The translations under genes were made by a program, and so were the position numbers. 14,483 bases of DNA, from positions 70,308 to 84,790 of the IMG/VR virus record IMGVR_UViG_3300027763_000047; one strand, given 5' to 3'. How positions within the stretch are numbered: position 1 is the first letter of the stretch; the number at the start of each line of letters is the position of its first letter. This stretch comes from a virus (taxonomy: Duplodnaviria > Heunggongvirae > Uroviricota > Caudoviricetes). Of this stretch, positions 1,012 to 14,483 are shown in pieces. A model generated the notes under the pieces. That model was not told the origin of the DNA. It saw nothing but the letters and a program-made list of their open reading frames with translations, and searched no databases.

Positions 1012-1703
1012 TGAGAGACGAAATTTACAGTATTGTTGAAAGATTAGCTGCCCTGGAAGGACGTATCGATACCCAGGCAAGCGGGACTATTACAGAATCT
1101 CGACAGAAAAAACCAGCCCTTTTCAACTACCTGAAAAGAACTGACGAAATGTTTAGTCCCGGCGTGTCGGGTGTAGAGTTTGCTGAAGATACTGTTGAAG
1201 AAGATGTACTGGCCCGAGTTAAACAAGGACTAGCCGACTATCTCAAATCCGCGGAAGATGGTAAACAGGACAAAACTTTAATTAAAAAACAAAAACAAGA
1301 TTTAGATTTAAAGAAAAAAGAATTACGTGATCGAACACTACAAACTAAAGACCCGACCCATGTAAGTGATATGGAAGAAGATCCAACACAAGGTCCACAT
1401 TCATCAGCATCGGGCGGCGGATCAAACCCCACATATGCACGTGAAAGCCGTGAAACTGCACCTGTTAAGACTATACATATTCCGGTAGGTGAAGAAGTTG
1501 GACTGAGTGGCGGTGGTGGTAGTACGCTAGTGGAAATACATGGCGATGAGCGCGATGGGTTCTGTATTAAATGTGCTGGTAAAGAAATGCGGTCTCGATT
1601 TAAGACCCTGGATGAATGCCAAATAGCATTGGAAATGTATATGGCACACCGTAGAGCCAAACACGAAAGCGGTGGCACTGATGATTATATTGAGGAAGCA
1701 TAA
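1011..1703 (+). CDS. Hypothetical protein, 230 aa, charged and low-complexity
   Basis: TAATG-coupled on both sides. Lys-rich coiled-coil-like centre and several hydrophobic-x-Glu sites (ITE|S, FAE|D, VEE|D, MEE|D). Confidence 0.8.
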   Translation: MRDEIYSIVERLAALEGRIDTQASGTITESRQKKPALFNYLKRTDEMFSPGVSGVEFAEDTVEEDVLARVKQGLADYLKSAEDGKQDKTLIKKQKQDLDLKKKELRDRTLQTKDPTHVSDMEEDPTQGPHSSASGGGSNPTYARESRETAPVKTIHIPVGEEVGLSGGGGSTLVEIHGDERDGFCIKCAGKEMRSRFKTLDECQIALEMYMAHRRAKHESGGTDDYIEEA

Positions 1704-4700
1704 TGAATTTGTTTAACCTGTTTGAAAATGACCGTTCGAGAAGAAATAAGGCACGTACTATCAGAGATCTATTCGACAGATGGACTAACAGTGAATACGC
1801 ACCTTTCAATAGTGATTCCGGTGACCATAATGAAGTTATACGTAAAGCAGCAAGTTTCTTACAGGATATTGTAGACCCCAGTCAAGTTGAAAGATTGTCA
1901 CATAAATTAAGCGACTATTGGCATGGCGAAGATGGCATGGAGTTAGATGAAAAGCTGGGCTCACAGTTGGTTAATCGTCGTCAAGCACACGCTCTTATCA
2001 CCAAATTTAAAAGACATAGTTTTGGAGAAGGCGATGCATCTGAATCAGAAGGTGCTGGTGTATTTGATGTTGGTGATCATGTACTGTTTAAAGGGCATTC
2101 GGCCGAGGTTATTGAGGTAGATGGAACAGCAGCCACTATACGTGTTCCTAATTGGAAAAATGTTTCTGGTATGGTTGACGATACTACGGAAGTTGATCCT
2201 GCAAGTCATTTCTTAACACCCATAATGTCGGAAAGCGACAGTGGGACAGTTGATATGACGGGTAAGAAATGTACTGCTTGTAAAAAAGGCACTTATCAAG
2301 AAACTAGTCAGCACGACGACATGGATGGGGTGCTACATTGCACCAAGTGTCGCAAGGAAGTCAAGCGTCATCAGTCTGCTAAACCAAAAGAGAAAGGTGT
2401 GTCGGAAGGCAAAAAGGTAGATCGTTTTGTTGGGTATGTTGAAAAGAGCGAGGAAAAGGCCGGCAAGTCAAAGAAAGATGCCGAAAGCATTGCTTGGGCC
2501 ACAGCCAACAAACGTGGTATGCTGGATAACAAGAATAAAAAAAAAGTTAAAGAAGATAGCATAGCTGATCAAGCAGCTAGAGATACACAGACTATGATGC
2601 AGGCATTCCAATCTGGACAAATGAAGCCCCAGGAGTTTGCACCTGGAGAAATCAAACCTTCTCAAATATATGGTCATCCCAAATGGCGAGAAACTATACA
2701 GGCTATGCTTAAAAAATATCCTAACAATCAAGAGCAAGGACGACAAGCTGCCGTAGATGCAATCAAACAAATGATCCAACAGGGAAATATTCAGGAAGGA
2801 TTATCCAAAGAATTAGGTAAATGGATGAAATCCACATCTGGAAAAAGAATTTCGGAAGCAGGAGAATCAAACAATTATACTGCTAATGGATTTGTTGGAT
2901 CCGACACTGGCGGCGGAGCATTTAGTGGATATAGAAGTCAACAGCGCCGGCCGACATGGTCGATCCAAGGCACCCCGCCACCTGCAATGCAATATCAAAA
3001 AGGTCCTGCGCCAGCTAATCCCCCTGAAATGCAATATCAAAAAGGTCCGGCTCCTGCCAGCAAAACTCCATTTAATTTCAGCGATTACGAATATGGCCCT
3101 GATAACACTACAATAGTCCCGAAGAAAAAGGCTGCACCGCCCGAGCCGAAAATAGATCAAACCTTTAGAGATAATCCTCCGGCCTATTTGCCTGACGTAG
3201 AAACTAAAGATCAGTTCAACCAGAGGACGCAGCAATGGCAGCAGAAGTTCGGCCCTCAACTGGGTGGTACTACTTCTGCGCCGGGGTACGAACAACCTGC
3301 ACCTGGGAAAAAGGCACCAACTGACACTTCTGATCCATTAGCAAAAAATAATTCACAATATGCTGTTCCTAATATGCCCAGTAGCCCAGTAGATACTACT
3401 AATCCATTAGCACCAAATAATTCACAATATGCTGCTCCTCCTAGCGTACCAACTCCTGCGCCACAGAGTGCTGCTCCGGCACCACAGAGTGCTGCTCCGG
3501 CACCACAGAGTGCTGCTCCGGCACCACAGAGTGCTGCTCCTGCACCACAAAAATCACGCCCAGGGTTGGCACCAGGTGCTGATCCGCAGGTTTATGATTG
3601 GCAACAAGAATTAAGAAAGAAGAATCCAGCACTCGTTGCAGACGGACTATGGGGTCCTGGTACAGATGCCGAAGCAAAACGACAACCTGACATTAAGCCG
3701 CCGGAGACAGCTAAACCAATGCCAGCTCAACCCGTGCCGCGTCAACAACCAGCACAACCAAAAACAACTGCACCTGAAGAACCTGCGCAACAAACTGGAC
3801 CAGTTACTACAACAATCAGTTCAGACGAAGCTGAAAGACGTAGACGCGAAGGCGGTGTCATGGCACCAAAAAGTGGCGCTGAGGACTATTTTAATCAACA
3901 CTATAATCCGGACGGTACTGAAAAAGTACAACCTGCACCAGTACGTCCTAAGCCTGCGCCGGCACGGCCGGCACCTGCTCCACAGCCGGCACAACCCGCA
4001 CCAGTACGCCCTAGCCCTGCCCCACAGCAAGCACAACCTGCGCCACCAGTAAAGGCACAGCCTAGCCCTGAAATGGGGCAAGCGATGCCTGCGCCGGGGT
4101 ACGAAGAGCCTGCACCTAGGAAAAAAGCACCACCTGAGTCGAAACTCGAATACTACCGCCGAACAGATCCCAAAGGATACGAACGCTATATGTACCTCCA
4201 AAACCTCAGCCAAACAGATCCCAAAGAATACGAACGCCAAATGCGACAATTAAATCCCCAAAATTACCCACCACAAACTGAGTCAAAGAATAACTCCAAG
4301 CCCAAGAGTATGAAACGTGCAGCCAATGACGCAACAGGTGCCAAGTTTGGTGGATACTATAAAGGTACACAAAAAGGTGCGCCACGACCAGGACAAGGTT
4401 TTGGCTCCATGGAAGAAGGTATCGCCGGCAACATGACAGTTCGTTCTGATACACTGACCAATTTAAAGAAACCTGAAGATTTGACCATGAAGACGGCGGA
4501 TCCACTTAAAGGAAATCCTAACCGTAATGCATTGGTAAGCGCACAAGCAAGAAACCTTGTGGCCAAGGGTGCTCAGACAGCTGGTCCAGGAACAGGGGCT
4601 CATACAAATAAAGCTCTGGATGTTAAGAAAGGTGACTTCCGTAAAATGAAGCACAAAGGTTCTTTTGATTTTTCAGAATCAACTAACTTTTTAGCCTGGG

Positions 4701-5068
4701 CCATGGCATCTGGGTATAACGTTATTGGCAATCCAGCAGTATATGAATCTGCCAAGTACGAATACAATATGCTATTAGCAGAAGTAAAAAAAAAAGTTAA
4801 AGAAGCTGTAGATCCCAACGCAGCAGCACCAGCCGCTGCGCCTGCTGCACCTCCTGCTCCGCCGCCGCCTACACCCGACGACAATATTCCCGACCTAAAG
4901 CCGGGACAATATTTTGTTTGGCGTGTATATTTTGATGATGGTACCAAAACACGTATGAAGATTACAGATCCCAAGTTTGATGTAAATAAATATTATGCTG
5001 ATAAAAATATATCAGTGATTAATGTAGATTACAATTGGAAACCTAGAGGTAAAGCTAATGCAGTTTGA
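1703..5068 (+). CDS. 1121-aa mosaic low-complexity protein, putative internal head or virion protein. Contains an SH3/KOW-like segment, a CxxC...CxxC zinc ribbon, a PG_binding_1-like motif and Pro/Ala/Gln repeats
   Basis: Long uninterrupted ORF, TAATG-coupled. FDVGDHVLFKGHSAEVIEVDG (about 2063-2125), CTAC...CTKC (2270-2350), VYDWQQELRKKNPALVADGLWGPGT (within 3572-3685). Confidence 0.85.
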   Translation: MNLFNLFENDRSRRNKARTIRDLFDRWTNSEYAPFNSDSGDHNEVIRKAASFLQDIVDPSQVERLSHKLSDYWHGEDGMELDEKLGSQLVNRRQAHALITKFKRHSFGEGDASESEGAGVFDVGDHVLFKGHSAEVIEVDGTAATIRVPNWKNVSGMVDDTTEVDPASHFLTPIMSESDSGTVDMTGKKCTACKKGTYQETSQHDDMDGVLHCTKCRKEVKRHQSAKPKEKGVSEGKKVDRFVGYVEKSEEKAGKSKKDAESIAWATANKRGMLDNKNKKKVKEDSIADQAARDTQTMMQAFQSGQMKPQEFAPGEIKPSQIYGHPKWRETIQAMLKKYPNNQEQGRQAAVDAIKQMIQQGNIQEGLSKELGKWMKSTSGKRISEAGESNNYTANGFVGSDTGGGAFSGYRSQQRRPTWSIQGTPPPAMQYQKGPAPANPPEMQYQKGPAPASKTPFNFSDYEYGPDNTTIVPKKKAAPPEPKIDQTFRDNPPAYLPDVETKDQFNQRTQQWQQKFGPQLGGTTSAPGYEQPAPGKKAPTDTSDPLAKNNSQYAVPNMPSSPVDTTNPLAPNNSQYAAPPSVPTPAPQSAAPAPQSAAPAPQSAAPAPQSAAPAPQKSRPGLAPGADPQVYDWQQELRKKNPALVADGLWGPGTDAEAKRQPDIKPPETAKPMPAQPVPRQQPAQPKTTAPEEPAQQTGPVTTTISSDEAERRRREGGVMAPKSGAEDYFNQHYNPDGTEKVQPAPVRPKPAPARPAPAPQPAQPAPVRPSPAPQQAQPAPPVKAQPSPEMGQAMPAPGYEEPAPRKKAPPESKLEYYRRTDPKGYERYMYLQNLSQTDPKEYERQMRQLNPQNYPPQTESKNNSKPKSMKRAANDATGAKFGGYYKGTQKGAPRPGQGFGSMEEGIAGNMTVRSDTLTNLKKPEDLTMKTADPLKGNPNRNALVSAQARNLVAKGAQTAGPGTGAHTNKALDVKKGDFRKMKHKGSFDFSESTNFLAWAMASGYNVIGNPAVYESAKYEYNMLLAEVKKKVKEAVDPNAAAPAAAPAAPPAPPPPTPDDNIPDLKPGQYFVWRVYFDDGTKTRMKITDPKFDVNKYYADKNISVINVDYNWKPRGKANAV
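2986..3048 (+). repeat. Identical 21-nt direct repeat AATGCAATATCAAAAAGGTCC x2 (period 42 nt; MQYQKGPAP)
   Basis: Copies at 2986-3006 and 3028-3048. Confidence 0.9.
3323..3439 (+). repeat. Imperfect direct repeat, period 69 nt (DTSDPLAKNNSQYAVP / DTTNPLAPNNSQYAAP)
   Basis: Copies start at 3323 and 3392 and share AATAATTCACAATATGCTG. Confidence 0.85.
3455..3549 (+). repeat. In-frame tandem repeat, 21-nt unit CCGGCACCACAGAGTGCTGCT, about 4.5 copies (PAPQSAA)
   Basis: Units start at 3455, 3476, 3497 and 3518, with a partial unit at 3539. No spacers between units. Confidence 0.95.
4162..4237 (+). repeat. 25-nt direct repeat with one mismatch (TDPKGYER / TDPKEYER), period 51 nt
   Basis: Copies at 4162-4186 and 4213-4237. 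Confidence 0.88.
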
Positions 5069-6125: not shown

Positions 6126-8786
6126 GTGAGTTATGTAGACGCATTATATTCCCGCGACGCGGATCGTATACATATTGTAGAACGTGTTGATGGTAAAAGA
6201 GTATACAAAGAATATCCAGCCAATCACATATTTTATTATGATGATCCCCGTGGTAAGTTCCAGTCAATATATGGAACTTCTGTGGCTCGTTTCTCCAGCC
6301 GGAACTTAAAAGAGTTTCGTAGGGAAGTGGCGGTGCAAAAAGGTCGGCAACTTTACGAATCCGATATTAACCCCGTGTTCCGTTGTCTGGAAGAAAACTA
6401 TAAAGACAAAGATGCGCCAACACTACACGCAGCGTTTTTCGATATTGAGGTAGACTTCCACAAAGAACGAGGATACAGTCCTACGTCAGATCCATTTAAT
6501 GCTATTACCGCAATATCAGTCTATCTGCAATGGATAGATCAATTGGTCACCTTGGTTATTCCACCAAAACACATGAGCATGGAGACAGCACAGGAGATAG
6601 CATCGGAATTTGAAAACACTATTGTATTTGATAGTGAGGAGGAGATGCTAAAAACTTTCCTGGATCTAATTGAAGATGCAGATGTACTGTCAGGTTGGAA
6701 TAGCGAGGGCTATGATATTCCCTACACAGTGAATCGTATTACTCGTGTGTTGAGTAAGGACGACACTCGTAGGTTCTGTCTTTGGGGACAATATCCCAAG
6801 CCACGCGACTACGAACGCTATGGCACTACCAGCACAACATATGATTTAATTGGGCGGGTACATTTGGATTATATGCAGTTGTATATACAATATACATATG
6901 AGGAACGACATAGTTATAGTCTGGATGCTATTGCTGAGTATGAGTTAAACGAACACAAGACACAATACGAAGGAACACTGGATCAACTGTATAATCAAAA
7001 CTTTAAAAAGTTTATTGAATATAACAGACAGGATACAATGATCCTGAATAAACTTGACACCAAGTTACGCTTCTTGGACCTAGCCAATGAACTAGCACAC
7101 GCTAACACAGTAACTCTGCAGAAGACCATGAGTGCAGTGGCGGTGACGGAACAGGCTATTATCAATGAAGCACATGAGCGTGGATTGGTCGTTCCCAATA
7201 AGAAACAACGATTACACGATGAGGATACTGCCGCGGCGGCAGGTGCTTATGTTGCGTATCCTAAAAAAGGTATACACGAATGGATTGGTGCTGTGGATAT
7301 TAACAGTCTGTATCCATCAGCTATTCGTGCGTTGAATATGGGAATGGAAACGGTAATTGGTCAATTACGTCCGGTAATGACCGATCGATATCTTGATGAT
7401 CTTATCAGTCAGGGAAAATCTGCAACAGCAGCATGGGAAGGTATATTTGCATCGTTAGAATATACTGCGGTGATGGAACAGCAACGCGGTACTGAGATCA
7501 CTGTAGACTGGCAGAATGGTGAGAAGTCCGTACACTCGGCTGCTGAGATCTGGAACATGGTGTTTAACAGTAACCAACCCTGGATACTGACTGCTAATGG
7601 TACCATTGTCACTTATGAGCGCAAGGGTGTTGTCCCGGGACTGCTGGAGCGGTGGTATGCTGAACGTAAAGAACTACAGGCCAAGAAGAAAGCAGCTACC
7701 GATCCAAAAGAAATAGCATTTTGGGATAAGCGTCAGTTGGTTAAGAAAATTAACCTAAACAGCTTATATGGTGCTATTCTTAATCAACATTGTCGGTTCT
7801 TTGACAAGCGTATTGGACAGTCAACTACGCTGACTGGTCGTAGTATTGCTCGTCATATGGCCGGTCATATCAATGAATGTATCATGGGTGTTAAGGATCA
7901 TGTAGGCGAAGCCATCGTATATGGTGATACAGACTCATGTTACTTTACTGCTTGGCCCGCGATTAAAGACGACGTAGCTAAGGGCGCAATGACCTGGAAC
8001 AAGGACATGTGTATACAGTTATATGATAATATTGCTGATCAAGTTAACGAATCATTTCCAGCATTTATGGAACAGGCATTCCACTGCCCGCGAGAGATGG
8101 GCGAACTGATCAAAGCAGGGCGCGAGCTGGTGGCATCTAACAGTTTGTTTATTACCAAGAAACGCTATGCTGTGTTGATCTATGACCTTGAAGGTAAACG
8201 ATTGGATACCGATGGTAATCCTGGAAAGATTAAGGCCATGGGATTGGATCTAAAAAGATCAGATACTCCTAAAGTGGTGCAGGAGTTCTTGTATGAGATT
8301 CTGGAAAAGGTCTTGACGGGTACATCACGTGATGATATTATTGAAAGAATACGAGAATTTAAATATGCGTTTAAAGATAGACCAGCTTGGGAAAAAGGCA
8401 CTCCTAAACGTGTTAACAATCTAACTACATACACCAAGAAAGAAGAAGCTGCGGGTAAGGCTAATCTTCCCGGTCATGTTCGTGCAGCATTAAATTGGAA
8501 TAATCTGCGCAGAATGAACAGCGACAAATATAGTATGCAGATCGTTGATGGTATGAAAACTGTGGTGTGCAAACTAAAGGCTAATCCACTAGGTTGGACT
8601 AGTATTGGTTATCCTACAGATGAACAACGCTTGCCCGAATGGTTTAAGGAATTGCCATTTGACCACAGTTTAATGGAAGCCACAATTGTAGATCAAAAGA
8701 TCGATAACCTGCTAAGTGTACTAAACTGGGATCTAGCAAGTGCCACTAACACAGAAAATACTTTCCAATCACTATTTGAGTTTTAA
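6126..8786 (+). CDS. polB: Family B DNA polymerase with 3'-5' exonuclease (T4 gp43-like)
   Basis: ExoI FFDIEVD, ExoII GWNSEGYDIPY, ExoIII YNRQD, motif A DINSLYPS, motif B KINLNSLYG, motif C YGDTDS, and KKRY. GTG start directly after the upstream TAA. Confidence 0.97.
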   Translation: MSYVDALYSRDADRIHIVERVDGKRVYKEYPANHIFYYDDPRGKFQSIYGTSVARFSSRNLKEFRREVAVQKGRQLYESDINPVFRCLEENYKDKDAPTLHAAFFDIEVDFHKERGYSPTSDPFNAITAISVYLQWIDQLVTLVIPPKHMSMETAQEIASEFENTIVFDSEEEMLKTFLDLIEDADVLSGWNSEGYDIPYTVNRITRVLSKDDTRRFCLWGQYPKPRDYERYGTTSTTYDLIGRVHLDYMQLYIQYTYEERHSYSLDAIAEYELNEHKTQYEGTLDQLYNQNFKKFIEYNRQDTMILNKLDTKLRFLDLANELAHANTVTLQKTMSAVAVTEQAIINEAHERGLVVPNKKQRLHDEDTAAAAGAYVAYPKKGIHEWIGAVDINSLYPSAIRALNMGMETVIGQLRPVMTDRYLDDLISQGKSATAAWEGIFASLEYTAVMEQQRGTEITVDWQNGEKSVHSAAEIWNMVFNSNQPWILTANGTIVTYERKGVVPGLLERWYAERKELQAKKKAATDPKEIAFWDKRQLVKKINLNSLYGAILNQHCRFFDKRIGQSTTLTGRSIARHMAGHINECIMGVKDHVGEAIVYGDTDSCYFTAWPAIKDDVAKGAMTWNKDMCIQLYDNIADQVNESFPAFMEQAFHCPREMGELIKAGRELVASNSLFITKKRYAVLIYDLEGKRLDTDGNPGKIKAMGLDLKRSDTPKVVQEFLYEILEKVLTGTSRDDIIERIREFKYAFKDRPAWEKGTPKRVNNLTTYTKKEEAAGKANLPGHVRAALNWNNLRRMNSDKYSMQIVDGMKTVVCKLKANPLGWTSIGYPTDEQRLPEWFKELPFDHSLMEATIVDQKIDNLLSVLNWDLASATNTENTFQSLFEF

Positions 8787-9713
8787 ATGACAGTAACGGA
8801 ATTAGTACATTTTAAAAATCAACTGGATAAGCTGTCGGTTCCGCCTATACTAGAGAAGGCGGATATCGCTTTACAAGAATTTTCTCATGTAATGTCCGTG
8901 CATTCGTCTACTGATGTCGATAAGATTATCAACAGCCATGCAGCTATCAAAGAAGCATTTAATTCTTTTGACAATGAATTAGCTGAGATTAAACGCAACT
9001 TAAAAAGCAACATTGAAGAAGCGGAACGAGTATTATTTCAACAAAGCTATAGAGCATACCATGATGAAAGTATCTACGATGCGCACCATATTCTAGGTAG
9101 GCGTTGGCAACCCGATATTAATCTTGAATTGTTTTATTCTAGAGTTAAGAAAACAGTGGATTGGCATTATCCCGCTATGATTTTCCGCCCGGGATTTGCC
9201 AACTTCATTGATGATATGGTGGGATACGATCCCTTATATCTCGTTGAAGTTAGCCATCAATTTTTAGAACCAGTATTAACGAAATTTAACCCGCAATATC
9301 AGAGAAGACTGCGTCCATATATTATTAAAGAACACACTGACGATCCGCTGCTAGACCGATTGCCCAACGAACAGTTTGGTGTAATTGTAGGGTGTCACTT
9401 TTTTAACTTTAGGCCCCTGGAAGTGATTAAGAAATACCTGTCGGAAATTTATACCAAATTAAGACCAGGTGGTGTGTTTATGCTGACGTTCAATGACTGC
9501 GATCGTTGGCCAGCAGTAAAATTAGTGGAAGAAAAGAAAGACGGCAGTTATACACCCGGTAGTTTAGTTTTTGAATTGGCAAAATCCATGGGGTATACTA
9601 TAGATTATTGCTGGCATGATGAAGGTCCACAGACCTGGCTTGAATTACGCAAACCCGGTATGTTATCATCGCTGAGAGGCGGACAGACTTTGGCAAAAAT
9701 AATTTCAAAATAG
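8787..9713 (+). CDS. Class I SAM-dependent methyltransferase-fold protein with a helical N-terminal extension
   Basis: C-terminal LDRLPNEQFGVIV...YLSEIYTKLRPGGVFML is typical of class I methyltransferases. Motif I is degenerate (MIFRPG). Acidic residue at the end of the predicted beta-2 strand (YLVE). Confidence 0.65.
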   Translation: MTVTELVHFKNQLDKLSVPPILEKADIALQEFSHVMSVHSSTDVDKIINSHAAIKEAFNSFDNELAEIKRNLKSNIEEAERVLFQQSYRAYHDESIYDAHHILGRRWQPDINLELFYSRVKKTVDWHYPAMIFRPGFANFIDDMVGYDPLYLVEVSHQFLEPVLTKFNPQYQRRLRPYIIKEHTDDPLLDRLPNEQFGVIVGCHFFNFRPLEVIKKYLSEIYTKLRPGGVFMLTFNDCDRWPAVKLVEEKKDGSYTPGSLVFELAKSMGYTIDYCWHDEGPQTWLELRKPGMLSSLRGGQTLAKIISK

Positions 9714-9743
9714 TTGCAAGGTCTAAATACAATCTGTTATACT
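9714..9743 (+). promoter_or_regulatory. Sigma70-like promoter (TTGCAA-18 nt-TATACT, extended -10 TGn) with a late-type CTAAATACA nested in its spacer
   Basis: TTGCAA at 9714-9719, TG at 9735-36, TATACT at 9738-9743, CTAAATACA at 9723-9731. SD-like AAAGGA precedes the ATG at 9768. Confidence 0.6.
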
Positions 9744-9767
9744 ACATTTATTATAAAAGGAAATAAA

Positions 9768-10490
9768 ATGCGAGATCATCTATTAGATTTAATCAGTCAC
9801 ATTCATGCATTGGGCGGCATCGACCAGCTAAGAATTTCAGGTACAGACACAGAAACAAATTTCAACGCTATTGCTGACGATCGTTCGGTGGTAATTGACG
9901 GTATGTTTATTAATCCCGTAGCAGACTTCATGGGCACATTTGGTATGCCCAATTTGAAGAAACTTAGTATTCTATTGAACTTAAAAGAATACCAAGAAGG
10001 TGCTAAGTTAACTATGAGCCGCAAAGATACCGGAGCCCCGGATCAACTGACTTTTGTAAACACCAACGGTGACTTTAAAAACAGCTATCGTTTTATGGCA
10101 GAAGCCCTGGCTAATGAAAAGATCAAACCTCCCAAGTTTAAAGACGTTACCTGGAACGTTGAATTTGAACCTAGTGCTGCTGCTATTCTGCGTTTAAAGA
10201 TGCAAGCGTCAGCTAACGAAGAAGAAAATACATTCCAAGCTAAAGTTGAAGATGGGGATCTGAAGTTTTACTTTGGTGACCATAGCTCACACGCTGGTAA
10301 CTTTGTATTCCAACCTGATGTAGGTGGTGATATCAAACGTGCATGGCAATGGCCCGTTAAGACAGTTATTGGCATTTTGGATTTAGCTGGTGACAAAATT
10401 ATGCGTATTAGCGATGGCGGTGCTACACAAATCATTGTTAACTCTGGTTTGGCAATCTATACTTTCATTATTCCAGCGCAGACAAAGTAA
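9768..10490 (+). CDS. DNA polymerase sliding clamp (T4 gp45-like), 240 aa
   Basis: Size and segment pattern parallel gp45 (FGMPNLKKLSILLNL; YRFM...KIKPPKF; VEFEPSAAAILRL). Replisome context. Start moved from the track's TTG at 9714 to the ATG at 9768, which follows an SD. Confidence 0.7.
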   Translation: MRDHLLDLISHIHALGGIDQLRISGTDTETNFNAIADDRSVVIDGMFINPVADFMGTFGMPNLKKLSILLNLKEYQEGAKLTMSRKDTGAPDQLTFVNTNGDFKNSYRFMAEALANEKIKPPKFKDVTWNVEFEPSAAAILRLKMQASANEEENTFQAKVEDGDLKFYFGDHSSHAGNFVFQPDVGGDIKRAWQWPVKTVIGILDLAGDKIMRISDGGATQIIVNSGLAIYTFIIPAQTK

Positions 10491-10493
10491 TCA

Positions 10494-12092
10494 ATGACTC
10501 AAGATAACCTTACCGCCAAACAACTGGACTATGCGATTTTTCTTCCTGCATTGTCGGGTTTTTACTCCAGCTATATAGGCAAACAACGTGGCGGCGTTCA
10601 CGTTGAACCTGCTCGTATGCCCGCCAATATCCAGGATATGGAGATGCTTAATTGGCTCAACGACCAAAAGGCATTGTTCCCATATAAATGGAGTCTGTAC
10701 TCCGCGGGGCATGCCAATTTAGATATCAATAAACAGGACTGGGCCGAAGACATGGTGCGTAATCGTGATCCCAATACATTCCTGTTGGGTGATTCAGGCG
10801 GGTTCCAGATCGGCAAAGGTCGATGGGAAGGTGACTGGAAAAATCCTGCATGTCCCAAAGCAAAACAAAAACGTGAGCAAGTTCTTGCCTGGATGGATGC
10901 GTATATGGACTATGGCATGGTACTGGATGTGCCTACATGGATTACCAACTTTCCCAATAGTCGCAAGGTCACTGGTATCAATACATATCAAGACGCTGTT
11001 GATGCTACGTATATTAATAATGAATATTTTATTGCCAATCGTTCGGGCAAATGTAAATTTTTAAATGTACTACAGGGTGGCAATCAAACAGACGCACACA
11101 AGTGGTATAACACCATGAAGAAGTATTGTGATCCAAAACAATATCCCGGCAAACATTTTAATGGCTGGGCACTGGGCGGACAACATACGTCTGATATTGA
11201 ACTGGTATTAAAAAGAATAGTTACACTTAGGTTTGAAGGATTGCTTGAAGAAGGTCTACATGACTGGATGCACTTCCTGGGTATTGGTAGACTTGAGTGG
11301 GCGTTGATGTTGACCGACATTCAACGTGCTGTTCGTAAATATCACAATCCAAACTTTACTGTTAGCTTTGACTGTGCAAGTCCATTCTTGGCTACTGCCA
11401 ATGGACAAGTATATCATCAAATTGATATTCAGGATAGGAAGAAGTGGTGCTATCGCATGAGTCCTATTGTTGACAATAAAAAGTACGCGACTGACACACG
11501 CACATATCGTGATGCGGTGCTACAAGATGGCCTAATAAAACACTTTGACGAGAGCCCAATGAGTGCAAACTTCCTGGTTAAAGATATCTGTTACTATAAA
11601 GATGGAGTTCCTAAAACTCCGGCTGAATTGGGAACGGAAACTTTTGATCCAGCTAATCCAGCACATTACACAGTGATGCCTGATCTAAATAAAATAGGCA
11701 AGATAGGTAGAACAAGTTGGGACTCGTTTAGCTATGCATTGCTAATGGGACACAATGTCTGGACTCATATTGAATCTGTGCAGCGTTCCAATCGTGAGTA
11801 TGATGCTGGAATTTGTCCCACTATGCTGGTAGAAGAAAAGTTTGAACAGCTATATTTCAGAGATTTAGTAGATGCCATATTTTCTATTGACAATTTAGAA
11901 GATGCTCTTGCTTTCATTGACTATCATGATAAATTTTGGCAACGGTTCGTTGGCACTAAAGGCGCTACTGGAAAGAAAACTGTTAATTCACGTACTATGT
12001 TTGATGCGTTATTTGAAATCCCCGATTATACGCAAGTAGATGAATCTGAACTGGATGAGTCTAAACTTGAAGATCTGGAAAAATCCGCATGA
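10494..12092 (+). CDS. dpdA: TGT-fold guanine transglycosylase, DpdA-like (probable 7-deazaguanine insertion into DNA)
   Basis: TGT catalytic and binding motifs in the expected order: GD100SGGFQ, VLD145, LQ194G, ALG228G, H260FLG, SFD293C and GH420N. No CxCxxC Zn motif. Confidence 0.8.
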   Translation: MTQDNLTAKQLDYAIFLPALSGFYSSYIGKQRGGVHVEPARMPANIQDMEMLNWLNDQKALFPYKWSLYSAGHANLDINKQDWAEDMVRNRDPNTFLLGDSGGFQIGKGRWEGDWKNPACPKAKQKREQVLAWMDAYMDYGMVLDVPTWITNFPNSRKVTGINTYQDAVDATYINNEYFIANRSGKCKFLNVLQGGNQTDAHKWYNTMKKYCDPKQYPGKHFNGWALGGQHTSDIELVLKRIVTLRFEGLLEEGLHDWMHFLGIGRLEWALMLTDIQRAVRKYHNPNFTVSFDCASPFLATANGQVYHQIDIQDRKKWCYRMSPIVDNKKYATDTRTYRDAVLQDGLIKHFDESPMSANFLVKDICYYKDGVPKTPAELGTETFDPANPAHYTVMPDLNKIGKIGRTSWDSFSYALLMGHNVWTHIESVQRSNREYDAGICPTMLVEEKFEQLYFRDLVDAIFSIDNLEDALAFIDYHDKFWQRFVGTKGATGKKTVNSRTMFDALFEIPDYTQVDESELDESKLEDLEKSA

Positions 12093-13000
12093 AGAGTCTT
12101 GTTATAGGTATGGGCATCGGCCAGTTATATCTTCATGTATTAGTTGAGTTAGGTCACGAAGTTGTTACTGTTGATAGTGATGCTGCTAAATCAGCCGATT
12201 ATACTAACGTAAAATCAGCATTACAGGAACACGCATATTTTGATACAGTAAACATTTGTACTCCTAACTTTACTCATTTGGAGATAGCAAGGGCTGTAGC
12301 TAAACATGCCAGGATCGTGTTCATTGAAAAACCAGGGTTAGAAACTTCAGCACAATGGAAACATCTATGTAATGAGTTTCCCGACACACGTTTTATGATG
12401 GTTAAGAATAATCAATATCGTGATAATATTAATGTATTAGCACAACTAGCACATAAGGCAACGATTATTAATCTAACATGGAACAACAACGATCGTGTTC
12501 CTAACCCTGGCACTTGGTTTACCACGTATGATTTATCGTTTGGTGGAGTAAGTAGAGATTTAATTCCACACTTATTAAGTTTATTCCAATCGCTGTCAGG
12601 CTTTACTCATGATCAAGCTAAACTAGATTACGAAACAGTGGATCAACGTTGGCAATTAAAAGACTTAATCAAAACTGACTATGGCATTGTAAATCCTAAT
12701 GGAGTATATGATGTCGAAGATCATATAGAATTGCATTTTAATGACGCACAAGGCCGTAAGTGGTTTATTGAAAGTGACTGGCGTACACTAAATGGTGACG
12801 ATCGCAGTATTCTAATGATATTTGCGGATGGGTCTCGTTATTATTATGAATTAGGCTTGTGTCCTGAAGATGCGTATAAGCGTATGATTGATACTGCTGT
12901 TAAAATGACGGACGTCGACGCATACTGGCAACATCAATATGAGTTGGATATGTGGATACATAAAACAATTGAATCGCTTGATTTAGTGGGGGCAACATGA
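12089..13000 (+). CDS. Gfo/Idh/MocA family NAD(P)-dependent oxidoreductase
   Basis: N-terminal VIGMGIG Rossmann motif, ICTPNFTH, FIE80KP and GGVSRD157LIPH161. ATGA-coupled to the dpdA-like gene. Confidence 0.9.
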   Translation: MKSLVIGMGIGQLYLHVLVELGHEVVTVDSDAAKSADYTNVKSALQEHAYFDTVNICTPNFTHLEIARAVAKHARIVFIEKPGLETSAQWKHLCNEFPDTRFMMVKNNQYRDNINVLAQLAHKATIINLTWNNNDRVPNPGTWFTTYDLSFGGVSRDLIPHLLSLFQSLSGFTHDQAKLDYETVDQRWQLKDLIKTDYGIVNPNGVYDVEDHIELHFNDAQGRKWFIESDWRTLNGDDRSILMIFADGSRYYYELGLCPEDAYKRMIDTAVKMTDVDAYWQHQYELDMWIHKTIESLDLVGAT

Positions 13001-13902
13001 GAACAAGAATTTTATATACAGATGGGAAGGGTAAGTTTACGGAAACAGGTTGGAATAAACCCGATCCCACCGCAGATGAGATTGAAGTCAAAGCCGTTAT
13101 GACCGGAGTATGCCGCAGCGACATTGACATGATGACTGGGGGCTTTGGTCCATTACCCTTGGAAATGAGTGGGCACGAAGGTCTGGGCAAGGTTACTCGT
13201 GTTGGGGCAAATGTACTGGACGTACGGGTAGGCGACCTAGTCTCCACTCGCGGCGAGCCAGCATATTCCGACTACTACAATGTTCGGCAGGGAGAGTATG
13301 TATCGGTACCCGAGGCACATCCTCGATACATTATTGAGCCAGTGGCCTGTGGGTATAACCTCATCATGCAGACATATGACGAACTGCTGGCACGACATGG
13401 CGATGGCAGTCGATTGTTAATCCTGGGCAGTGGATTTTTGGCTTGGGTAGCATATAACTCATTAATCATAGAAGGATTGCGATTTGAGGTAGATGTTGTG
13501 GGCAGTAGCAACACCGCAATATGGAAAGATCGATTACAGGATAAACCCGTAGGGCAGTACGATGTTGTTATTGACCTAAGTGATAAGACTACTGTATTTG
13601 ATAGCGATATATTGAATCTTGGTGCATTAGTAGTCATGGGCACACAGAAACAAGTCACAACTGATTTTAGTCAACTGCTATGGAAAGCATGTACCATGGT
13701 ATTTCCCAGTCCCCGCAATCCGAGATTCCATTTAGTCATGGCTCGTGCGGAGTTTTGGGTAAGTAAAGGTAACTTAGATGTTGACTACTTCTGGACGCAA
13801 GCGTATACTAGAGATAGTGAGTGGCAACAGGCTTTTGACGATGGCTTAAATCGTCCCAAAAATTATAGCCGTGGTTATATTGTATGGCAGGATAACAAAT
13901 GA
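12997..13902 (+). CDS. Zn-dependent medium-chain (MDR) dehydrogenase lacking the structural-Zn lobe
   Basis: GVC39RSD, GH60E61GLG, GDLV, IE114PVAC and Rossmann LILGSGFLA. The four-Cys loop is absent. ATGA-coupled. Confidence 0.9.
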   Translation: MRTRILYTDGKGKFTETGWNKPDPTADEIEVKAVMTGVCRSDIDMMTGGFGPLPLEMSGHEGLGKVTRVGANVLDVRVGDLVSTRGEPAYSDYYNVRQGEYVSVPEAHPRYIIEPVACGYNLIMQTYDELLARHGDGSRLLILGSGFLAWVAYNSLIIEGLRFEVDVVGSSNTAIWKDRLQDKPVGQYDVVIDLSDKTTVFDSDILNLGALVVMGTQKQVTTDFSQLLWKACTMVFPSPRNPRFHLVMARAEFWVSKGNLDVDYFWTQAYTRDSEWQQAFDDGLNRPKNYSRGYIVWQDNK

Positions 13903-14357
13903 TTAATCAACAACGACAACAAGCATTAGCAGAAGAAGCTATCCGTATTATGTATAAAGCAGAACGTAAAGTATGGGTAACCTTTCGCAAAGAAGGTATT
14001 CACAAGTATCCCGCAGCAGCAACAGATCCCTTACTAGCAACAGGTGATGAATATGATGTGTCATTTCTAGCTAATGAGCATAGACATATTTTCCACTTCC
14101 GTGTTTGGATTGATGTATTTCATAACGATCGTGATATTGAGTTTATTCAGTTTAAACGATGGTTAGAAAATCTTTACAAAGATGGTATTCTATCATTAGA
14201 TTATAAATCATGCGAAATGATCGCAGATGATTTATATATTAACATTTCTGCACGTTATCCTAAACGTGCGGTGTGGATTGAGGTCTCCGAAGATGGTGAG
14301 AACGGATGCCTCATTAAATACGAACTTTCTCGCCCTTCACAAACAGTATTAATTTAA
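13899..14357 (+). CDS. QueD-like T-fold protein, DpdL-type
   Basis: EGIH, L57ANEH61RH63IF65 in place of QueD CxxxHGH, DRDIEF, SCEMIA (compare TAENIA) and VSEDGEN. ATGA-coupled. Confidence 0.75.
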   Translation: MINQQRQQALAEEAIRIMYKAERKVWVTFRKEGIHKYPAAATDPLLATGDEYDVSFLANEHRHIFHFRVWIDVFHNDRDIEFIQFKRWLENLYKDGILSLDYKSCEMIADDLYINISARYPKRAVWIEVSEDGENGCLIKYELSRPSQTVLI

Positions 14358-14367
14358 AGGAATTAAA

Positions 14368-14483
14368 ATGGCAAAGTTGTCTTTCAAGCCTAACGAACGT
14401 GCAAATCAAACTCTAGACGATCTCGAGAAGTTTTTAGAATTCTGTAGAGATTATGGGTATCGCTACAACGAGAACCATTTATA
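14368..14483 (+). CDS. Hypothetical protein, 5' part only (MAKLSFKPNERANQTLDDLEKFLEFCRDYGYRYNENHL...)
   Basis: SD AAGGA at 14357-14361, ATG at 14368, open to the window end. Confidence 0.75.
   Translation, partial: MAKLSFKPNERANQTLDDLEKFLEFCRDYGYRYNENHL

Follow-up and report, generated by a model that had tools for sequence, protein, structure and literature searches.

The last 14.5 kb of the 84,790-base IMG/VR record IMGVR_UViG_3300027763_000047, a stretch of 14,483 nucleotides referred to here as the window, carries a run of four genes that is a slice of a larger conserved phage module. The run opens with a DpdA-like guanine transglycosylase and closes with a QueD-like protein, DpdL; between them lie a Gfo/Idh/MocA-family oxidoreductase (Gfo) and a zinc-type MDR oxidoreductase, together called the pair, which is an accessory of the module and not part of its core. 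What are two NAD(P)-dependent dehydrogenases doing in such a place? The reading we prefer, at a probability of roughly 0.55, is that they form an accessory redox cassette, carried by a subset of these phages, whose substrate is a sugar or polyol serving the GT4 glycosyltransferase of the module. The record is rated 23% complete by CheckV, which at its length implies a jumbo phage of about 350 kb; the 85-kb fragment is that of a PA5oct-like jumbo phage, and the window stands at its end. The four open reading frames (ORFs) all start with ATG, and their features are as follows:

10494..12092, plus strand: gene 1, divergent DpdA-like guanine transglycosylase of the TGT fold, 532 aa (AlphaFold2 model, structure matches)
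10788-10808, plus strand: GDSGGFQ with D100 (gene 1 sequence)
11370-11372, plus strand: aspartate D293 of the FDC motif (gene 1 sequence)
12089..13000, plus strand: gene 2, Gfo/Idh/MocA-family NAD-dependent oxidoreductase, 303 aa (PF01408, 32.8 bits, cut-off 24)
12326-12334, plus strand: EKP motif of Gfo (sequence)
12557-12571, plus strand: D157-x3-H161 of Gfo (sequence)
12997..13902, plus strand: gene 3, zinc-type MDR of the polyol-dehydrogenase kind, 301 aa (PF08240, 40.1 bits, cut-off 23.5)
13111-13113, plus strand: C39 of the MDR (sequence)
13174-13179, plus strand: H60-E61 of the MDR (sequence)
13899..14357, plus strand: gene 4, DpdL, QueD-like, 152 aa (homology to prototypes, signature)
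14067-14093, plus strand: LxxxHRHxF signature of DpdL, L57-ANE-H61-R62-H63-I-F65 (sequence reading)

At all three junctions of the run the start overlaps the previous stop by four bases, and each junction necessarily reads ATGA, since the TG of the start codon doubles as the first two letters of the stop. The ORF listing agrees on this point with the original prediction, which had described four genes joined by consecutive ATGA overlaps at 12089, 12997 and 13899.

Gene 1 is invisible to sequence searches of Pfam, PHROGs, NCBIfam and the PDB (phmmer), and a profile of 20 family sequences finds only a chance kallikrein match in the PDB; megablast of all four genes against 50,697 phage records gives no match either. 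The structure is far more telling. An AlphaFold2 model built from 20 relatives (pLDDT 86, pTM 0.84) has only TGT structures among its top 50 Foldseek matches in the PDB (E 1.5e-6), and VIA-align superposes model residues 10-446 on Thermotoga maritima TGT 2ash with a Z of 18.4 and a root-mean-square deviation of 4.3 Å over 300 residues, and on the archaeal TGT 1iq8 with a Z of 17.9. BFVD yields matches of the model to TGT/DpdA proteins of phages, among them Vibrio phage nt-1 and phiST (M4SLA5). The fold matches and the GDSGGFQ motif bear out the TGT-fold enzyme that had been placed first in the run. D100 (GDSGGFQ), D145 (LDVP) and D293 (FDCASP) are invariant in 20 relatives of 43-73% identity, and we take them, by motif and not by residue-level superposition, to correspond to D102, D156 and D280 of Zymomonas mobilis TGT, the catalytic and substrate aspartates. 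The canonical CxCxxC...H zinc site is not conserved in the 20 relatives: the matching region has a single invariant cysteine, C366, together with invariant D364, H420 and H425, and the protein may possibly have an altered metal site. The Pfam TGT model PF01702 has no match at E 0.1 in the contig, nor by hmmscan of gene 1, but this test does not discriminate, because the known DpdA3 proteins of phiST and ACP17 are also unmatched. Among phage proteins, gene 1 is 36% identical to PA5oct gp316 and 33% to gp468 of Vibrio phage 2.275.O, whose gene adjoins QueF/QueC/FolE. The similarity to ACP17 ASD50403 is marginal (E 0.006-0.2), as is that to phiST gp042 (Foldseek E 1e-2), and when hhalign compares the family profile with individual DpdA3 sequences, the motifs line up in the right order at a low probability of 2-6%. 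It seems reasonable to regard gene 1 as a DpdA-like enzyme that exchanges guanine, presumably in phage DNA.

The last gene of the run is easier to name. It is 58% identical to ASD50405 of Acidovorax phage ACP17 (1e-48) and 36% to phiST gp040 (7e-16), the named prototypes of DpdL, in which LxxxHRHxF replaces the CxxxHGH of QueD (Cui et al. 2023, PMC10516641). The HRH is invariant in 97 sequences, and gene 4 has no match to PF01242. DpdL is proposed to be the decarboxylase of 7-carboxy-7-deazaguanine (CDG; PMC10516641). In related loci it keeps the company of FolE, QueE and the DpdA-like enzyme, with QueD in five of five near-complete relatives and without QueC. A QueD-like, DpdL-like protein at the end of the run was thus correctly recognised.

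Are the two enzymes in between functional? EKP and D-x3-H are the defining motifs of Gfo/Idh/MocA oxidoreductases, and in 65 Gfo sequences the invariant positions are G7, G11, T27-V28-D29, E80-K81-P82, V104-N108, G152-L158 and H161. In the PDB, Gfo has weak matches (E 4e-4) to levoglucosan dehydrogenase, to DgpA, which oxidises C-glycosides, and to inositol 2-dehydrogenase. For the MDR, 62 sequences share C39, D42, G59-H60-E61-G62, E113-P114, C117-G118 and G144-S145-G146, among which C39, H60, E61 and E113 stand for the catalytic zinc ligands (Cys, His-Glu, Glu) of the GroES-like domain and G144-S145-G146 for the GxGxxA/G Rossmann motif; its Atlas model aligns with full-length MDRs at TM 0.82-0.87, and the nearest named Atlas clusters, by feature scores, are ribulose-5-phosphate reductase, L-iditol/sorbitol dehydrogenase and a threonine-dehydrogenase-like group. 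The structural-zinc lobe is missing from the MDR, with zero cysteines in residues 85-112, as it is from several MDRs of the polyol-dehydrogenase type. The NAD-type aspartate of Gfo is invariant, and the MDR lacks an acidic residue where its second Rossmann strand ends, which is weakly suggestive of NADP(H) as its cofactor. Judged by their sequences, both enzymes are catalytically intact and conserved. Decay into pseudogenes is ruled out by catalytic residues that are invariant across about 60 sequences.

The module to which these genes belong becomes visible in relatives. At least 599 IMG/VR stretches encode relatives of gene 1, and the best 80 of these were taken for the neighbourhood counts given here. 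Clustering of the 80 loci gives an upstream half that runs PolB, a 308-aa ORF (w308), a 258-aa protein, the DpdA-like enzyme, the pair (where present), f3, DpdL and a small ORF, and a downstream half that runs GT4 (family f6), a short DegT-like fragment, FolE, a SnoaL-like protein, a purine phosphoribosyltransferase (PRTase), QueE and MetK, on to RNase H. All pair-negative relatives have f3, a protein of about 175 aa that belongs to no family, between DpdA and DpdL; neither the window nor L005, a 99%-identical relative that reaches further than the window, has it. Past DpdL, L005 has a small ORF, GT4, an ORF of 236 aa and then, encoded on the opposite strand, an AMP-forming ligase, before FolE. 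The ligase (L005:15830-16942, minus strand) is acyl/aryl ligase-like (PF00501, 8e-28), lies between GT4 and FolE and is unique to that lineage. In some relatives, extra radical-SAM genes of about 380-410 aa stand between the DpdA-like gene and Gfo or f3 (L020:8312-9538, L070:9013-10155).

The GT4 is present in 59 of the 80 loci and follows DpdL in L005 and in nearly all relatives. Its AlphaFold2 model (pLDDT 85) has the GT-B/GT4 fold with two Rossmann domains, and Foldseek matches it to glycogen synthase, BshA (TM 0.68), MshA and PimA with E values of 5e-10 to 1e-7. Homologs are PA5oct gp317 and ACP17 ASD50404, which have weak Pfam GT1 matches. The biosynthetic genes of the relatives include FolE (1.5e-40), a divergent QueE (1e-12) and the purine PRTase, and all five near-complete pair-bearing relatives have a canonical QueD near the module, with no convincing match to QueC that covers the domain. 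A system of the preQ0/preQ1 type is ruled out, as the module of close relatives has neither QueC nor QueF. One complete relative (G004, 235.8 kb) has nucleoside diphosphate (NDP)-sugar genes embedded in its module, with QueD on one side and PRTase/QueE on the other: a TylC3-like C-methyltransferase, a cupin, two SDRs and a UDP-Glc/GDP-Man dehydrogenase-like protein. The original prediction had asked for such genes in the flanking genome, and the answer depends on where one looks. The relatives supply FolE, QueE, GT4 and NDP-sugar genes, whereas tblastn with the Que proteins of PA5oct and Vibrio phage 2.275.O finds no FolE, QueE, QueC or QueF in the 84.8-kb contig itself, a negative that says little for a 23% complete contig that stops 126 bases beyond DpdL. 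The PRTase, of the xanthine/hypoxanthine-guanine type, adjoins QueE throughout the family (L030:8120-8662, L232:11033-11599, PA5oct gp321). PRTases make nucleotides of deazapurine bases in tubercidin and toyocamycin biosynthesis, and this one could turn a deazapurine base into a nucleotide, on a route parallel to the base exchange by DpdA.

How tightly is the pair bound to this module? A Gfo-seeded IMG/VR search gave 93 stretches, of which 80 loci were taken, and an MDR-seeded search gave 47, all of which were taken. In all of these viral loci, wherever the contig reaches, the order is DpdA-like, Gfo, (SulP), MDR; overall the pair directly follows the DpdA-like gene in about 125 IMG/VR loci. 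The order is kept while the identity of the DpdA-like protein spans 37-99%, and even in a sub-clade with DpdL moved upstream of DpdA the pair still comes after DpdA. In 56 of 64 distinct relatives the stop of Gfo overlaps or touches the start of the MDR, and in 24 of about 60 the end of the DpdA-like gene overlaps the beginning of Gfo. The pair is not distributed independently of DpdA, which supports the co-occurrence part of the original prediction. Seen from DpdA, 18-19 of the best 80 loci carry the pair. In a FastTree phylogeny of 113 DpdA-like proteins the pair is strongly clustered, with some 5-7 gains or losses, a figure that is approximate because PA5oct was scored as lacking the pair and its copy was found later elsewhere in the genome. 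Five large pair-negative contigs (19-53% complete, none of them complete) have no MDR homolog elsewhere in them. In several lineages a 393-aa SulP anion permease (PF00916, 5e-49) sits between Gfo and MDR (L010, L011, L013, L015, L020, L021, L094-L099, L101, L109, L110 and L130).

A Gfo profile scan of 185,579 cellular species genomes returns two loci only. The first (L233, PAOW01000007.1), on a contig of a 'Methanobacteriota' metagenome-assembled genome (MAG), encodes PolB, DpdA-like, Gfo, MDR, f3, DpdL, GT4 and PRTase; almost certainly this is phage sequence that was wrongly binned with an archaeal MAG. The second (L234, JADFGB010000072.1), a 6-kb contig of a Bacteroidetes MAG, encodes Gfo, MDR, an f3-like start, GH13, GT2 and GT2-DUF2064. 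The scan identified no cellular donor pathway for the pair, which is virus-specific and essentially absent from the cellular genomes scanned.

What, then, could the complete module do? In the literature, FolE, QueD and QueE make CDG, and DpdA-family enzymes exchange G in DNA. In the proposed mechanism, FolE, QueD and QueE would likewise make CDG, DpdL would convert it to 7-deazaguanine as the literature proposes, and the DpdA-like enzyme would swap guanine of the phage DNA for the deazapurine, which the GT4 would decorate further. The pair would carry out NAD(P)-dependent redox chemistry on the sugar or polyol that is the GT4 donor, or on the sugar once attached; in one possible scheme, the NAD-type Gfo oxidises and the MDR re-reduces, giving an epimer or a keto or deoxy variant. 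The final product probably goes beyond plain 2′-deoxy-7-deazaguanosine (dDG), because the GT4 belongs to the module and NDP-sugar genes are embedded in some genomes. We infer the replacement of G by 7-deazaguanine, the product, the sugar substrate and the order of the steps from the gene content and from known pathways; what the analysis itself establishes is who the genes are, their folds, the conservation of catalytic residues, the synteny and the co-occurrence.

The closest described system is the DpdL-type dDG pathway of phiST and ACP17, with which the window and its relatives share a DpdL with LxxxHRHxF, a TGT-fold enzyme beyond the reach of Pfam, and FolE, QueD and QueE without QueC. ACP17 also has a GT4-like gene between DpdA3 and DpdL, which PMC10516641 does not discuss; PA5oct has the order DpdA-GT4-DpdL. 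The module of the window differs in lying behind PolB and in having the Gfo/MDR pair, f3, PRTase, MetK and, in some genomes, NDP-sugar genes; the GT4 is a further difference, shared with ACP17. phiST has neither a glycosyltransferase nor the pair, and this DpdL-bearing phage contains plain dDG (PMC10516641).

The second comparison is with PA5oct, a cultured Pseudomonas phage (Wroclawvirus) that has GT4, PRTase, QueE and f3 like the module of the window. In addition to gp316, its homologs of the window genes are gp362 (Gfo, 32%), gp363 (MDR, 40%) and gp318 (DpdL, 52%). The location of the pair differs: it lies between DpdA and DpdL in the window, and in the PA5oct group (11 records) Gfo, MDR and f3 (44-48%) are an overlapping trio 27 kb downstream of DpdA-GT4-DpdL:

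L235:8902-11179: Gfo-MDR-f3 trio of PA5oct, EST35_0362-0364 (homologs in the cultured PA5oct group)

The predicted operon coupling thus stands for the window, where the genes are joined by ATGA, and for the loci with adjacent genes, but not for PA5oct, where the linkage is at genome level. The DNA of PA5oct is resistant to restriction enzymes whose recognition sites contain G; the preprint reporting this names QueE and a PTPS, but neither the transglycosylase nor the glycosyltransferase nor the pair (PMC12191111, preprint 2025).

Sugars on 7-deazaguanine-derived bases do have a precedent outside phages. In huimycin a glycosyltransferase (PF13439 in the clusters) puts a sugar on such a base, and in dapiramicin sugar-tailoring enzymes make the glycosyl donor (bioRxiv 10.64898/2026.04.15.718813). 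Both differ from the phage case in being free, preQ0-based actinomycete metabolites, with no DpdA and no DNA target, and the acceptor atom need not match. Precedents for the pair itself come from two-dehydrogenase epimerisation or keto-sugar routes such as IolG/IolW (myo- to scyllo-inositol), NtdC/NtdA (kanosamine) and WbpB/WbpE, in which oxidation of a single hydroxyl on a sugar or cyclitol by a Gfo/Idh/MocA enzyme gives a ketone for another enzyme to act on. The second enzyme of the phages is a Zn-MDR and not a Gfo or an aminotransferase, and the similarity is at the superfamily level only. Our literature search found no description of a glycosyltransferase in a deazaguanine module, of the Gfo/MDR pair, or of glycosylated deazaguanine in phage DNA.

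Several observations favour a sugar or polyol as the substrate: the GT4 that follows DpdL, the NDP-sugar genes of G004, the position of both enzymes nearest to sugar/polyol dehydrogenases, and the L234 contig, in which the pair stands beside GH13 and GT2 genes. The original prediction had the two enzymes extend the chemistry, either by redox tailoring of the 7-substituent or by making a sugar or cyclitol; the pair is intact, conserved and linked to DpdA, and of the two options the second fits better, given the GT4, the NDP-sugar genes and the likeness to dehydrogenases of sugars. Other observations weigh against this reading. An enrichment analysis of related loci turned up no further family that comes and goes with the pair, so no pair-specific sugar-activating partner is found. 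The PA5oct pair lies far from DpdA, and therefore the fixed position in the uncultured phages could reflect common descent and not function. Plain 7-deazaguanine offers no obvious handle for a sugar. The likeness of the pair to sugar/polyol dehydrogenases is weak (PDB E 4e-4; Atlas feature scores) and does not fix the substrate. The own genome is the fragment rated 23% complete, and QueD, QueE and the sugar genes of the module are known from relatives. Finally, decarboxylation by DpdL is a literature proposal, and heterologous expression of the protein failed (PMC10516641). The fully specified version, a sugar-bearing 7-deazaguanine in the DNA with the pair oxidising and re-reducing one carbon of the sugar or of its donor, is put forward tentatively and is less likely than not.

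Could the pair have nothing to do with the base? Together with f3 it might be an auxiliary metabolic cassette serving host sugar, polyol or envelope metabolism, whose adjacency to DpdA is synteny inherited within a replication block. The distant PA5oct trio, amid unrelated small genes, would suit such a cassette, as would the L234 contig, on which no DpdA is visible, and the several other sugar-nucleotide enzymes borne by the same genomes; the SulP permease inserted in the pair of some relatives suggests metabolism of an imported small molecule. Yet the pair is confined, among the genomes examined, to those with the DpdA-like/DpdL/GT4 module, in the window it is translationally coupled to DpdA and DpdL, and its position is kept down to 37% identity of the DpdA-like protein, even where DpdL moved upstream. 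f3 itself is a universal module member between DpdA and DpdL. We regard this explanation as unlikely.

Alternatively, as in the first option of the original prediction, the substrate might be the deazapurine or pterin skeleton, with the pair reducing or oxidising a C7 side chain such as the group derived from the CDG carboxyl, or working on the side chain of a pterin intermediate before QueE, and the GT4 then decorating the hydroxyl so formed, much as biopterin glucosides are made. The pterin variant would have the pair act like sepiapterin reductase after PTPS. A gene set of FolE, a T-fold enzyme, reductases and GT4 does echo the FolE-PTPS-reductase-BGluT logic, and tetrahydrobiopterin glucosyltransferases are among the structural matches of the GT4, at ranks 24, 31 and 32, but BshA, MshA and glycogen synthase beat them. 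PA5oct has an SDR-like gene between DpdL and QueE, and the decarboxylase role of DpdL is only a proposal. The AMP-forming ligase of L005 could activate a carboxylate, but it is unique to one lineage, and no conserved carboxylate-activating enzyme accompanies the pair in related loci. Furthermore, both enzymes are most like sugar/polyol dehydrogenases, and phiST, with DpdL, makes do with plain dDG (PMC10516641). Action on the skeleton appears improbable. That the TGT-fold enzyme acts on tRNA or protein and the cassette serves another target (cf. Cap10 deazaguanylation) is very improbable: TGT-family enzymes act on tRNA and, in type IV CBASS, reportedly on protein, and the canonical zinc motif is not conserved in gene 1, but the gene has its conserved place directly behind PolB, its structural matches include phage DpdA proteins, the gene content equals the phiST-type DNA system, and PA5oct DNA is resistant at G-containing sites (PMC12191111).

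Returning to the redox cassette that works with the GT4, what would it mean? The 7-deazaguanine modifications known from DNA have no more than small groups at C7. If the module makes a sugar-decorated or redox-tailored base, a new class would be added to the natural hypermodified purines, the unidentified G modification of PA5oct, a therapeutic candidate phage, would be explained, and DNA labelling would gain new enzymes. Should the pair oxidise and re-reduce a carbon of the sugar or of its donor, pair-bearing lineages and those lacking it would differ in the stereochemistry or oxidation state of the sugar on one and the same base, a diversifying arms-race layer comparable to the alpha/beta-glucosyl and arabinosyl hydroxymethylcytosine of T-even phages. 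Given the at least 599 related DpdA-like stretches in IMG/VR, the chemistry would be ecologically widespread. The question can be put to a direct test, as every part, the pair among them, has a homolog in cultured phages of the PA5oct group.

The four genes are embedded in a longer row of the window:

6126..8786, plus strand: family B DNA polymerase, PolB (PF00136, 6.9e-36; PF03104, 7e-18)
8787..9713, plus strand: 308-aa ORF with no assigned function, abutting PolB and the next ORF (weak PHROG match)
9714..10490, plus strand: 258-aa protein, the 'clamp' of the original prediction (phrog_12062, unknown function, 4e-35)
14369..14483, plus strand: start of a small ORF of family f39, 73 aa in a relative, cut by the contig end

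PolB opens the gene run and lies upstream of the DpdA-like gene in 71 of the 80 related loci, the 308-aa ORF is kept in 49, and the 258-aa protein directly precedes the DpdA-like gene in 78. Gaps between neighbours from PolB to gene 1 are 0-3 bases, and the coupled unit probably begins further upstream than the four genes, toward PolB; a promoter and terminator scan of 8500-14483 gave no signal over the shuffled (chance) expectation. The label 'clamp' could not be confirmed for the 258-aa protein: it has no Pfam match and, with a 12-sequence profile, no PDB match, and its homolog PA5oct gp314 (31% identity) is annotated as a 'structural protein' of the virion. At the other end, tblastn matches f39 in L005 at 13876-13986, followed there by GT4 and FolE. 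PolB ends in a C-terminal FQSLFEF (8763-8783) that resembles FDALFEI of gene 1 (12000-12020), which comes after a linker disordered in the model (residues 488-522, pLDDT <50); L506 and F507 of gene 1 are at least 90% conserved among the 20 DpdA-like relatives. A partner-binding peptide common to both proteins is possible, and it is to be read with the clamp label of the neighbouring protein itself unconfirmed.

Further upstream, a 1121-aa ORF (1703-5068) contains, at about 3000-4500, a stretch with raised GC content (0.51 against about 0.41) and reversed GC skew. Its only match is a weak one to Ephrin_rec_like, and its length varies, as the homolog in the 99%-identical relative has 1526 aa. 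PA5oct has a putative adhesin at the matching position.

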